Shown piece after piece: positions 2,285 through 64,000 of a stretch of 64,000 nucleotides of DNA; position 1 is the first letter of the stretch; every line of letters begins with the position of its first letter. Under the pieces are notes generated by a model that was not told the DNA's origin, ran no database searches, and saw only the letters and a list, made by a program, of their open reading frames with translations. The DNA is taken from assembly GCA_951406725.2 (NCBI GenBank), contig OX597826.1, positions 51,150,001 through 51,214,000 of the forward strand, read 5' to 3'. The position numbers were made by a program, and so were the translations under genes. The DNA is from Octopus vulgaris. Taxonomy: Eukaryota.

Positions 2285-2962
2285 CAAGGCTGCGTGGTAA
2301 GAAGCTTGCTTCTTAACCATATGGTCCGGGTTCAGTCCCACTCTGTGGCACCTTGGGCAAGTGTCTTCTACTGTAGCCTTGGACCGACCAAAGCCTTGTG
2401 AGTAGATTTGGTAGACGGAGACTGAAAGAAGCCTGTCTACCAAATATATACAAAATTAAGAGGAATGGCCACTAAAGTGGACGTCTATGTTTAGCATATT
2501 TGTGTCCACTTTAGTGGTCATTCCCTAAATTTTGTATCTAACACAATTTTTAATCTTCGGAATTTTTTAAATATGCTAACCCACTGGTTTTAATTGATTA
2601 ATATCAATTTCTACGCTTATTATTTAATATATATATATATATATATATATATATATATATATATATATATATATATATATATATATATATATATATATAT
2701 ATATATATATATATATATATATATATATATATTATATATATATATTTATATATATATTTTTGTGTGTCTGTGTTTGTCTCCCCACCATCGTTTGACAACC
2801 GATGCTGGTGTGTTTATCTACGTCCTCGTAACTTAGCGGTTCGGCCAAAGAGACCGATAGAATAAGTACTAGGCTTACAAAGAATAAGTCCAGTGGTCGA
2901 TTTCTTCGACTAAAAAGAACCTTTTAAGGTGGTGCTCAAATGACTGAAACAAGAAAAAGAAT
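2285..2962 (+). mobile_element. tRNA-derived SINE family A with internal (TA)n, interrupted by an inverted-repeat insert at ~2445-2630
   Basis: Head GGCTGCGTGGTAAGAAGCTTGCTT...GGTTCAGTCCCAC...GCACCTTGGGCAAGTGTCTT and 3' half ...AATGACTGAAACAAG. More than 15 copies or fragments occur in the window. Confidence 0.85.
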
Positions 2963-3731
2963 ATATATACATATATATATATATATATATATAGATATAT
3001 ATATATATATATATATATATATATATGTGTGTGTGTGTGTGTGTGTGTGTGTGTGTGTGTGTGTTTTATTGCAATGTTTTTTTTTACAGCCTGAAAGATG
3101 TTGCCTTTATACAGTGTAAAGAACCTGAATCCATCTGAGCTGTTTTACAGATAAAGCATCTTGAAAGTTGTAATTTCTGAAATAAAACTCCTACATGCTG
3201 TCACTAAACGCTTTGAGTATATTTTATGATTCGCAGGTATCTTACTCTCATGAATATAGACACCTGCATTATACACACACTCACGCACACACACACACAC
3301 ACACACACACACACACACACACACACACACACACACACACACACACACACACGCACACTCGCATGTACTCACGCGCACACTTATACATCCATGTAGAAAA
3401 TATTGGGTTATTTTTGTCAAAATTTTCAGTGAATACAATATTTTGTCCCCAAACTAAAGATTTAGTTCGGTTCCTCTACCTATTTTCCTTCTATCACCCA
3501 TGATCCATCACTCCCTATATTTCCGGATAATTGTCTGTCATAGCTTATACACCGCTATATCTTCAATATCCTATGTTTTGTACCATATTTGCTGAATATT
3601 ATTATTTAAAATTTTAAACCTTCAAACATAGACCATTTTCCTTTTTTAAGTTGTTCTTTCTCTTTTTATTTTTCCTCTCTGTTTATCTTAATAATTTTGC
3701 ACTCAATATTGGTCGGCAAAAAAAAAAAAAA

Positions 3732-4292
3732 GGTGGCGAGCTGGCAGAAACGTTAGCACGTATTTCGTCTGCCGCTACGTTCTGAGTTCAAATTCCGCCG
3801 AGGTCGACTTTGCCTTTCATCCTTTCGGGGTCGATAAATTAAGTACCAGTTACGCACTGGGGTCGATGTAATCGACTTAATCCGTTTGTCTGTCCTTATT
3901 TGTCCCCTCTGTGTTTAGCCCCTTGTGGGTAGTAAAGAAATAGGTATTTCGTCTGCCGCTACGTTCTGAATTCAAATTCCGCCGAGGTCGACTTTGCCTT
4001 TCATCCTTTCGCGGTCAATAAATTAAGTACGAGTTACGCACTGGGGTCGATGTAATCGACTTAATCCGTTTTTCTGTCCTTGTTTGTCCTCTCTGTGTTT
4101 AGCTCATTGTTGGTGGTAAAAACATAGGTATTTCATCTGTCTTTACGATCTGAGTTCAAATTCCACCGAAGTTGACTTTGCCTTTCATCCTATTGGGGTC
4201 GATAAATTAAGTACCAATTGCGTACTGGGGTCGATCTAATCGAGTGGCCCACTCCACCAAAATTTCGAGCCTTGTCCCTAGAGTAGAAAAGA
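3732..4292 (+). mobile_element. SINE family B, tandem trimer of ~170-bp units (Meta-domain-like core)
   Basis: Three repeats of GTATTTCGTCTG...GAGTTCAAATTCCGCCGAGGTCGACTTTGCCTTTCATCCTTTCGGGGTCGATAAATTAAGTACC. The same family occurs at 21000, 28267, 56965 and 61400. The Meta-domain label is from recalled similarity. Confidence 0.8.
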
Positions 4293-4865
4293 ATATTGGT
4301 CGGTCAAAAATTTCCGGCTCAGGTAAAACAGCTATCAGGTGTTCAAGTTCTCTAAAAATTGTCGTTAATCATAAATTACCATAGCAAACGTAAAGTGGTT
4401 TCAATCAGAATTCGAAATCGTATCCCGTAGTCCGTTTTACAAGAGTTTACCTACAAGACAACTTCTCACGATTCCTTTAAACGTCTACGCAGCAGAGTTC
4501 TTCTGTTATCAGTTTATGTAAGAATATTTATTACCGAGATTTTCTGTAAATAGAATTACGTCTGCATCTCTAAGAAGTCATCCTCCTGGGTAAGTTCTAC
4601 CGTTGAGAACTGATAGGAATAACGTTACCATAGAAACATATTGATTTCATTTCATTAAACAGAAAACCATTTGCATCTTATCGTGGAATATTACAGTCTA
4701 GACTGTAAAACCTGGCTGTAATGTCTGCTTTAAATGGGCCGCACAACACGTTCACTTAAGGATTGAGCCAATAAAGGAGACTACGCAGTCGCTCGACTCG
4801 ATAAATTGACAGTCCTGAAAAAATACAACAACAAAAAGAAAGGACATCTGATAATGTAGATCTAG

Positions 4866-5185
4866 ACAAGTGATTCTCAACCATTTTGTACTTATCGACC
4901 TCTTTGATTAGTATTTCACTCTGGTTAACCCCTACAGCCATTCTATGTTTAAAAATTAGTTTTATAGATACTTCTTTTAAAATTCCTATTTTGTTTTTGC
5001 AAACATTAACGCGTGTAGGTTAAACTATGTAAAATGTTAAAGAAAGAAATCTGTTTTTTTTTTCCAATGAATATATCTCAATCAAAATTTTTCCATGGAC
5101 CCTTAATATATTACTGTGTGTAACTAATTTATCATTTTGCTTACACGGACCTCCAAAAATTCGTATGTGGACTCAACAAGTCAAA
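4866..5185 (-). mobile_element. Decayed hAT-Charlie-like MITE, reverse copy of 29720-30043
   Basis: TCTAGA followed by CAAGTGATTCTCAACC, a TIR-like end. The interior matches the reverse complement of 29800-30035. Confidence 0.6.
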
Positions 5186-5518
5186 GATCAAAGGAAACCA
5201 GAATGGCCACATTTGGGAAACAACAAATCATAAAGCTGCTCGTTCAAGGTTGACTTGGAGCTAAACAACAACAACATGAAGTAGATCGATCGACCGTCTA
5301 AAAACAATAGCAAAATATCAAGAAAATGAGCCGGAAATGAAACATCGAGACCTCTGGCCACAGGCTCCAATTGAAAATATTGTGTATGTGTGTGTGTGTG
5401 AGTGTGTGCGTATGTATGTGTATGCGTCTCTTCCAGCTGGATCCCTTGGAGATAACCTCACTTAGTGACTAGACGTTCTATTCCGCATGGTACCATCTTA
5501 ACGCCAATGGCCATTCTC

Positions 5519-61787: not shown

Positions 61788-62244
61788 ATATATTAAACTA
61801 ATATTAAAACTACAAAGAGACGAGCGTAAAGAAACAAACTCAGACACACACATACGCGCATACACGTCACTCATTCACATAGACATACATATACACATAC
61901 ACACATATCTCACGTTCGTATACTCTTTCTTTGTGTTTCATACACACACACACAATGTACAATTTTTAAGGAACGGAAAGTAGACTAGTAATTGGGCAGA
62001 ATTGTTATTTTATTTATTTTTTGTTTGCCTTTAGGAATTGGACTGTGGCCATGCTGTGGCACCAGCTACCACATTCTCGGGGTTAAACTGATTATATCGA
62101 AAGCAGTACTTTGTCTTCTTAGCATCGCTAAAAAAGACAAAGACATGGACATAAAAGACACATCCATGACGGAACAGAATACTACAATAATTTATAGTTC
62201 GACGCACCTTTTTCCCCACCTCCCACAGTTACATGCATACATTC

Positions 62245-62842
62245 TTTATTCTTTTATTCCTTTACTTGTTTCAGTCATTTGACTGCGGCCATGCAGGAGC
62301 ACCACATTTATTCGAACAAATGGATCTCAGGACTTAACCTTTGTAAGCCTAGTACTTATTCTATCGGTCTCTTTTGCCGAACTGTTAACATACATACATG
62401 CAGCATGCACATATATACTATTCTTTCTTTCTTTTATTCTTTTACTTGTTTCAGTCATTTGACTGCGGCCATGCTGGAGCACCGCCTTTAGTCGAGCAAA
62501 TCGACCCAGGGACTTATTCTTTGTAAGCCCAGTACTTATTCTATCGGTCTCTTCTGCCGAACCGCTAAGTTACGGGGACGTAAACACACCAGCATCGGTT
62601 GTCATGCAATGCTAGGAGGACAAACACAGACATACACACACACATACACAAACACATATATATGTATACATATATACGACAGGCTTCTTTCAGTTTCCGT
62701 CTACCGAATCCATTCACAAAGCATTGATCGGCCCGGGGCTATAGCAGAAGACACTTGCCCAAGATGCTACGCAGTGGGACTGAACCCGGAACCGTGTGGT
62801 TGGTTAGCAAGCTACTTACCACACAGCCACTCCTGCGCATAT
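62245..62842 (-). mobile_element. SINE family A: a 3' fragment plus a full copy
   Basis: Reverse-complement consensus at 62245-62385 and 62430-62842. Confidence 0.85.
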
Positions 62843-62928
62843 ACTACATTTTCCCACACACTTCGCGTCTACTAATGCTGCTCGATGCTATGTGATGTGA
62901 CATTTTACCCAAGCTGCCATGATAAAAG

Positions 62929-63512
62929 AAATTAAGTAAGAAACCCATAAAAGTAATTATAATGCCGAAATAATCAAAAACAGTCACACCAAAAATTTCA
63001 CTTATTAAAAAATGGATTGTACTATGAGAACGGAGAGAAATTAGAGTAGTTGGGAATACACACTGGCTATCTGTTTAAAGGTACACAAAGCTATGGAACG
63101 TTCACACAGTTTGCATATCCAGTCTCGAACATCATCTTGTCATCCCATCTTGTCCTGAATATCGATCTACTGAAGCTGTTCAGGGACGCGCAACATGGCA
63201 ATACTCTCCGTTATTCATCATACCTTGAACGTATTTCTTTTTGGGACATCGACATACTAAAATTCTTACGCTTGGGCGCTCACTTGGTAGAAGCCAACAA
63301 GATTGTCTACTATCTTTCAAACAATAATTTTGACTACCTTTTCGAATTCAATACCTCTACCACTTTTGGACAATATTATATATATATATATATATATATA
63401 AACAAATTAAGTAAGAAACCCATAAAAGTAATTATAATGCCGAAATAATCAAAAACAGTCACAACAAAAATTTCACTTATTAAAAAATGGATTGCACTAT
63501 GAGAACGGAGAG
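62929..63512. repeat. 109-bp direct repeat (62929-63037 and 63404-63512)
   Basis: Two mismatches seen; the second copy starts just after a (TA)n tract. Confidence 0.9.
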
Positions 63513-63697
63513 GTTTTTGTTTTCCTCTGTCTTCTCTTCTCTGGATCTTTCCTTCTCCTATGTTTCCGACGAAGAGCTCTGCTCGAAACGTTAAACCCTC
63601 CTTCTTTCCTTCTTTCCTGAGCGTCCAATAATACAATATTCGTTCCACGTCCTCGCGTTGTTGTGTTTTTTGTGCTTTCATGTTTGGATTAACATTA
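63513..63697 (+). mobile_element. Penelope-like 3'/pLTR fragment with a minimal hammerhead variant (63562-63596), ending in (TA)n
   Basis: GTTT-CCGACGA-A-GAGC(TCT)GCTC-GAA-ACGT-T-AAAC. Homologous to 27625-27840(-). Confidence 0.7.
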
Positions 63698-64000
63698 TAT
63701 ATATATATATATATATATATATATATATATATATATATATAAAACCCAGTGTAGCACCCATTACATTCGGATTTTTTTTTCACCCTCAGAATTGTCAATG
63801 TATGGAATAAATCTCACGTAAAAGCTGTTGACTATCAGGAAACTACATCCTTCAGAAATTCCTTGCTTCCTGAAATTTGCTAACACTATTGATGTGCTTA
63901 TGGATACTTTCCTCCTTAAGACTCTTTTACCGTTCACTTTTCTGTCTTGTGTTTTATTCTGTTTTACTCTGCACGTACTTTTTGGCCACATGACTTCACT

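Follow-up and report, generated by a model that had tools for sequence, protein, structure and literature searches.

In all probability (about 0.9), the type I hammerhead ribozyme motifs in the window analyzed here, 64,000 nucleotides (nt) of Octopus vulgaris contig OX597826.1 (assembly GCA_951406725.2, positions 51,150,001 to 51,214,000), lie in the 3' ends of multicopy families, five of them Neptune- or Hydra-type Penelope-like retroelements and the rest likely Penelope-derived, which likely reached (TA)n by GIY-YIG endonuclease nicking and a start of reverse transcription just downstream of the hammerhead. An earlier note on this DNA, made from the sequence alone, had proposed a TA-targeted system of many families. 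Many distinct families, both autonomous (Neptune- and Hydra-type) and non-coding, were indeed found with 3' hammerheads in (TA)n, but they are separate families and not one system. The whole is a well-supported case of known biology, with hammerheads of Penelope-like elements, their preference for (TA)n and a Hydra family from an octopus all already published; the one element without a match in the literature searched is a hammerhead core with an A3-U8 pair.

Hammerheads were sought with a type I descriptor (core CUGANGA or CCGANGA, GAAA, UH and three helices) and with block shuffles as the control. Four sites in the window matched, 7260-7307 on the minus strand and 8633-8719, 43625-43662 and 63562-63596 on the plus strand, against 0.06 on average in the shuffles, none of which (100 in all) reached four. 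When any Watson-Crick pair was permitted between positions 3 and 8, five matches were obtained, with 41341-41365 gained, against 0.07 (30 shuffles, maximum 1); a first, stricter descriptor had matched 7260-7307 alone. At 27720-27756 (minus strand) the core boxes were intact in 19 of 19 genomic copies, with a helix I weakened by a U-U mismatch, so that the five main hammerheads of the earlier note are real, four by the descriptor and the fifth by its conserved boxes. An Rfam scan of the window gave no hammerhead among the best 150 of 334 matches, where microsatellite matches to microRNA models dominated. Core boxes with a Watson-Crick 3-8 pair, three helices and an open helix I were observed in Families A, C, D, E, F, H and K, in B at 46095-46161 and in I at 53543-53602; they were absent at 46172-46278, 53719-53780 and 27259-27305.

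Copies were searched for in the 2.8-Gb genome. First-look candidates, which are not copy numbers, amounted to 1221 to 2859 per module for those at 27626, 46120, 8600, 7175, 43470, 63401, 41192, 53523, 8182, 46742 and 2440, and 40 matches were scored for each high-copy module. The main motifs and most modules are multicopy; the fold at 27259-27305, also named as a hammerhead before, had no second copy found in the genome and is unsupported. The five main motifs all come from multicopy families, each with a 3' end that adjoins (TA)n 40 to 280 nt beyond the cleavage site. The common anatomy comprises these fixed 3' ends, often in two alternatives, 5' ends that vary from copy to copy, copies in tandem and in inverted orientation, and TA on either side. 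Local inverted duplications, expected from the earlier note in the TA-embedded inserts, were present in 7 of 10 regions examined. The architecture of endonuclease-bearing (EN+) Penelope-like elements was found, with tandem pseudo-long terminal repeats (pseudo-LTRs), inverted 5'-truncated copies and an optional tail. Reverse transcriptase (RT) followed by a C-terminal GIY-YIG domain was found in A, H and Y, and the endonuclease alone in B, E and I.

Family A (27626-27846, minus strand) is a 5'-truncated 3' tip, the pseudo-LTR, of a young element with a C4-core hammerhead at 27720-27756. Its 40 scored matches, from 1344 first-look candidates, were 99 to 100% identical, and (TA)n adjoined the 3' end in 20 of 20 loci. 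Long copies carry an 884-codon frame with RT, DKG, a C-x4-C-x2-C linker and a GIY-YIG domain with CCHH, as well as a simple-repeat 3' untranslated region (UTR) of about 3 kb, a 937-bp pseudo-LTR and a tandem period of 5.9 to 6.2 kb. By its sequence motifs (CX2-5CxxC linker, CCHH and DKG), Family A is classed as Neptune-type; compared by eye with the printed alignment, its RT looks like Neptune1_Ap. No solved structure matching the protein was found. Family F (63516-63695, plus strand; hammerhead at 63562-63596) is a relative of A, about 74% identical, and in 18 of 19 copies TA is no more than 110 nt from the cleavage site. Near it, a 113-nt sequence is repeated directly at 62925-63037 and 63400-63512, 475 bp apart, and a TA tract immediately precedes the second copy; relatives of the region 62925-63512 are only about 70% identical, as in an old family, and a hammerhead was found in none of 6 loci.

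Family H (41192-41424, plus strand) is a Neptune-type 3' end with an inverted tail, and its A3-U8 core with a 2-bp helix II lies at 41341-41365. The site had been listed, as 41340-41373, among six decayed motifs. It is a family-wide variant and not decayed: in 11 of 11 copies there is A at position 3, U at position 8, a 2-bp GC helix II, an ACCGGU helix III and a 5-bp helix I, of which 3 nt are missing in the window copy. A 27-nt stretch of the family occurs exactly 309 times in the genome, and its reverse control 0 times. Among 20 loci chosen by a TA-free pattern, a Neptune-type RT and endonuclease lay upstream in 8 and TA lay within 140 nt in 18, with two termini near 60 and 118 nt. Family H resembles a relative at locus L032 that has the CX2-5CxxC linker, CCHH and DKG, and a coding family related to H has a U3-A8 core with equally small helices.

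Genome-wide, motifs with the ACCGGU helix III numbered 11,540 with U3-A8, 1,755 with A3-U8 and 179 with C3-G8 (controls 60, 320 and 28), U3-A8 being about 65-fold commoner than C3-G8. With the 2-bp GC helix II fixed, 893 A3-U8 matches stood against 45 with A3 and a non-U8 and 32 with U8 and a non-A3, counts that in part reflect copy number. The 3-8 core pair covaries across families, with Watson-Crick pairing kept. In an alignment of 28 of 30 loci (19 distinct rows, two loci with a shorter loop excluded), helix I was changed on both sides between A3-U8 subfamilies in 9 cells against 3.4 in shuffles (0 of 500 reach this); the pair count is less clear (39 of 500 shuffles), and kinship among the loci inflates the covariation signal. 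We tentatively suggest from these sequences, at somewhat below even odds, that several Neptune-type subfamilies of the genome may carry natural, selected hammerheads combining an A3-U8 core with a helix II of 2 bp, and that C3-G8, U3-A8 and A3-U8 cores may all work in one clade, probably only as dimers or with an element protein. If so, standard descriptors would overlook most hammerheads of this type, since searches fixed on C3-G8 miss most ACCGGU-type motifs here, and the variants would form a natural series for asking what the Penelope hammerhead does. Natural U3-A8, U4C and 2-bp helix II variants are already published (PMC3088659; PMC4209133); no natural A3-U8 core was found in the literature searched, which comprised full texts and supplements, with subscription papers and figures outside the search.

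Hydra-type elements are represented by Families B, E, I and Y. Family B (46023-46709, minus strand) consists of a decayed Hydra-type endonuclease C-terminus (46455-46709) and its 3' UTR, with a U3-A8 hammerhead at 46095-46161 (minus strand) found in 11 of 18 copies. Family I (53523-54035, minus strand) also includes a decayed endonuclease C-terminus (53889-54035), weak in the window (E = 0.19) and matching Hydra-type endonucleases in 6 of 11 relatives; its canonical hammerhead at 53543-53602 (minus strand) keeps the 5' box in 8 of 11 copies and has G8 mutated in the window copy. Two hammerhead-like folds had been placed directly 3' of GIY-YIG C-termini. Both C-termini exist, on the minus strand, but the folds named are not conserved: both boxes of 46172-46278 were present in 0 of 18 Family B copies, and those of 53719-53780 in 0 of 11 Family I copies on the plus strand and 1 of 11 on the minus strand. 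These two positions were misplaced, the real hammerheads lying 10 to 120 nt further 3'.

Family E (43480-43694, plus strand) is the 3' end of a Hydra-type element, with a C4-core hammerhead at 43625-43662 and a Hydra-type endonuclease C-terminus about 1.3 kb upstream at locus L111. Family Y (59875-59922, plus strand) is the 48-bp 3' tip of a young Hydra-type family, alone between TA tracts, and corresponds to the 3' terminus of L276, L277, L280, L283 and L286. Decayed Hydra-type RT fragments, absent from the earlier note, were recognized at 50194-50826 (minus strand) by phmmer (E = 1e-11) and by translations. The Hydra motifs (CxCX5C linker, no CCHH, CxxC and CxH around conserved E and N) were found in B and Y; the C-terminal part alone was seen for E, with CxxC and CxH around the conserved E and N, and for I, where these are decayed. 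Insertion into (TA)n and a canonical hammerhead, both Hydra-type traits, were also found, and the suspected Hydra-clade likeness of the endonuclease agrees with the motifs defined in PMC8557442. In the young family of L273-L286 the 3' UTR is a long simple repeat, and in many copies the frame is broken at one shared C-run ahead of the endonuclease, which may be an assembly error or real; L273, L274 and L279 read through.

Family C (7117-7779, minus strand) is a young non-coding unit of 475 to 477 nt in tandem and inverted arrays, with a hammerhead at 7260-7307 and inverted arms at 7462-7609 and 7642-7789. Full-length matches were 96 to 100% identical, the hammerhead was well formed in 18 of 19 copies, both outer ends lay in (TA)n at 12 of the 13 loci listed, and the 3' end takes either of two fixed positions. 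Family N had suggested that 5' ends might cluster at the cleavage site, but in Family C none of 46 partial copies started within 5 nt of it (a hand count, with about 1 expected by chance). In four sequencing runs, neither a contig joint skipping the 7117-7779 insert nor a piece spanning it was found. A further retrozyme-like family was noticed at locus L142 (G000:C1:20000001-20010000), where 3082-4542 and an inverted block consist of 353- to 359-nt tandem units in seven copies and two orientations, each with a canonical hammerhead; many similar arrays appeared in a genome-wide motif search.

The link to TA was measured in the window, which has 64 tracts of at least 12 nt, in a genome sample of 80 evenly spaced 10-kb stretches (800 kb), and per family, where the first TA tract of at least 10 nt was counted. 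The tract density is 1.0 per kb in the window against 1.08 per kb in the sample, and 31% of non-TA window positions lie within 300 bp of a tract. The claimed proximity of hammerheads to TA is modestly above chance within the window (p = 0.002 for the 11 sites of the earlier note) and clear in the sample and per family. The sample held 25 descriptor matches against 0 to 1 in 8 shuffles; 13 of these had TA in the 300 nt downstream (null 15.7%) and 6 had it upstream (null 16.7%). The rate of descriptor matches in the sample extrapolates very roughly to 90,000 canonical-core motifs genome-wide, the window being about twice as dense. Copies with TA in the 300 nt after the cleavage site numbered 19 of 19 for A, 18 of 19 for F, 15 of 18 for D, 19 of 19 for E, 12 of 16 for B, 7 of 10 for I and 16 of 19 for C, or 70 to 100% per family against a null of 21%. 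Among 41 TA clusters of the window, 11 adjoin hammerhead-family ends by an automatic library and 17 with six added by hand (16 without Family G), and 13 adjoin three other abundant repeats, which we take to be SINE-like (short interspersed elements). Scored automatically in the sample, with a library that is incomplete and built partly from the sample itself, 62 of 497 clusters adjoin hammerhead ends and 86 of 497 other abundant repeats.

In the proposed mechanism, which draws on PMC11167929 and PMC8557442, the GIY-YIG endonuclease of the element would nick TA repeats, and target-primed reverse transcription would start internally, at one of two sites. Synthesis that stops early or switches strands would leave short, often inverted stubs, which would keep the hammerhead because it is copied early, lying 40 to 280 nt from the priming site. 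A linker zinc finger is the hypothesized cause of the TA bias (PMC8557442), and Family C would be mobilized in trans. Cleavage of tandem transcripts by the hammerheads would require dimers or the element protein, and the hammerheads may be dispensable for insertion. According to PMC11167929, a Penelope-like protein nicks AT-rich DNA and begins reverse transcription at two internal sites, giving an optional tail, in agreement with the paired 3' ends seen in C, E and H; in that work the hammerhead cleaved only with the protein, and insertion in vitro did not depend on it.

Several observations weigh against this account. Among the loci examined (19 for Family D; no genome-wide search was made), Families C, D, G, K, L, M and N showed no coding partner, and C and D no autonomous one, so their Penelope origin rests on architecture. 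In Family A, the Pfam matches to RVT_1 (E = 0.0016) and GIY-YIG (E = 0.013) fall under the curated cut-offs, and in both full-length copies read the N-terminus lies in a different frame across C-rich runs, which may be either a frameshift or an assembly error. Among the 25 sample matches, 7 come from a single array and 2 more from one inverted pair, and the per-family TA loci are the best BLAST matches to queries ending at the TA border, by which complete 3' ends are favored. An empty site was not seen. A minimal-hammerhead family at L170:2233 and L194:6622 of the sample lies more than 1 kb from TA, and it offers a natural control for the targeting question. The active three-way junction is the minimum-energy structure of no monomer in predicted folds; fold z-scores ranged from -0.2 to -1.7 for seven motifs and reached -6.6 for 53530-53612, weak monomer folds being what is expected of dimer-type motifs (PMC4209133).

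The TA tracts are most likely pre-existing targets, because the variable 5' ends also lie in TA and tandem junctions within arrays carry no TA run. That insertion itself made the tracts, by added tails or by slippage seeded at AT-rich ends, is unlikely: all families do end AT-rich and adjoin TA, and hammerhead-family ends touch 17 of 41 window clusters, but TA also stands at arbitrary 5' truncation points inside coding or GC-rich sequence (directly in TA of at least 10 nt for 10 of 20 Family A copies read, and in short TA for 4, with 6 assignable to neither), and most sample clusters, scored with an incomplete library, had no such neighbor. The claim that much of the TA microsatellite is insertion scar was therefore overstated, the TA density being the genome average, the TA looking pre-existing, and 13 of the 41 window clusters adjoining other repeats. 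Two very abundant repeats, at 5540-5950, 17430-17830, 47620-48010 and 56270-56710, are joined repeatedly by a CA/TA run; many TA tracts are thus internal to a composite and may seed landing sites.

The hammerheads could be inert relics, the A3-U8 type included, carried in the pseudo-LTR, as the weak predicted folds, the poor cleavage of minimal hammerheads in vitro (PMC4209133) and the in vitro insertion left unreduced by catalytic mutants (PMC11167929) suggest; this is unlikely, given that positions 3 and 8 stay Watson-Crick across families (copy number contributing to the counts) and that helix I is altered on both sides between subfamilies, more clearly by cells than by pair count. For Family C, a retrozyme route, in which tandem transcripts self-cleave and circularize and the circles are reverse-transcribed repeatedly into arrays, is possible but doubtful. 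The head-to-tail non-coding unit and its well-formed hammerhead resemble the retrozymes of PMC7229834, whereas the two fixed 3' ends and frequent inversions are those of Penelope-like elements, none of the 46 partial copies begins within 5 nt of the cleavage site (chance would give about 1), and the unit exceeds the reported 170 to 400 nt.

Family D (8600-8839, plus strand) is a 3' end with the hammerhead at 8633-8719 and an inverted stub at 8528-8545. Family G (8182-8489, plus strand) is a multicopy TA-embedded module that includes the candidate hammerhead at 8404-8434, which has U at position 9 in all 11 copies and allows no helix II to be drawn. The motif of Family K (42802-42835, plus strand) was correctly called decayed: it is a minimal hammerhead of an old low-copy family, with the 5' box kept in 5 of 8 copies, 14 genome matches for the 42690 module and the nearest TA tract 413 nt off. 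Family L (2440-2626, plus strand) is an inverted-duplicated 3' end whose longer copies have hammerhead core boxes upstream, and Family M (21367-21595, plus strand) is that of a hammerhead family, with the hammerhead itself lost. Family N (46742-47107, minus strand) comes from a further young hammerhead family; the segment here is a 3' end cut off immediately 3' of the hammerhead, with a 31-nt inversion. Many short inserts between TA tracts are transposon tips. A 28-bp near-perfect palindrome lies beside a TA tract at 27491-27548, in a module for which no second copy was found.

Other repeats of the window include a broken non-LTR RT at 36327-38432 (minus strand), presumably L1/Tx1-like, a zinc-knuckle ORF1-like frame at 48615-49580 (minus strand) and a C-terminal zinc-finger fragment at 11074-11619 (plus strand). 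Fragments at 34553-35452 (plus strand) appear to us like the C-terminus of a LINE (long interspersed element) with a restriction-like endonuclease, and 54250-54850 (plus strand) is taken to be a decayed mariner-like transposase fragment. A 184-bp tandem repeat family occupies 3760-4243 and 61422-61788.

The octopus genome offers young autonomous Neptune- and Hydra-type elements, a young non-coding passenger, natural core variants and one shared target, so that targeting and ribozyme function become testable side by side. What hammerheads do for Penelope-like elements has yet to be settled (PMC8557442, PMC11167929). An octopus survey reports 31 recently active Penelope-like families, with hammerheads not discussed in the portion of its text available (PMC13282606); its supplement or repeat library may include families described here.

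Among known systems, the Neptune clade (PMC8557442, with Neptune1_Ap in its supplement) shares with Families A, F and H an RT with DKG, the CX2-5CxxC linker, a C-terminal GIY-YIG domain with CCHH, tandem pseudo-LTRs, a 3' hammerhead and a microsatellite bias; the differences are the 3' UTR of about 3 kb of simple repeat in A, the C4 core in A and F, and the A3-U8 core with a 2-bp helix II in H. Families B, E, I and Y resemble the Hydra clade in the CxCX5C linker, the lack of CCHH, CxxC and CxH around E and N, the canonical hammerhead and (TA)n insertion; for its member Hydra-1_Obim of Octopus bimaculoides, (TA)n preference and a hammerhead are on record (PMC8557442). Here, in contrast, there are several further families, set beside Hydra-1_Obim by motifs, with U3-A8 in B and C4 in E. 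The minimal metazoan Penelope hammerheads of PMC4209133 are likewise type I, with a short palindromic helix III and an extra base after A9, occur mostly as single truncated copies and include a U3-A8 variant, there in Schistosoma; the A3-U8 core found here is absent from the text of that source as available. Family C, finally, is like the non-LTR retrozymes, for which an origin from pseudo-LTRs has been proposed (PMC7229834; bioRxiv 10.64898/2026.07.22.740005), in being non-coding and arranged in tandem, with one type I hammerhead per unit and low GC, and unlike them in the length of its unit (476 nt), its strict targeting of TA, its inversions and its pair of fixed 3' ends.

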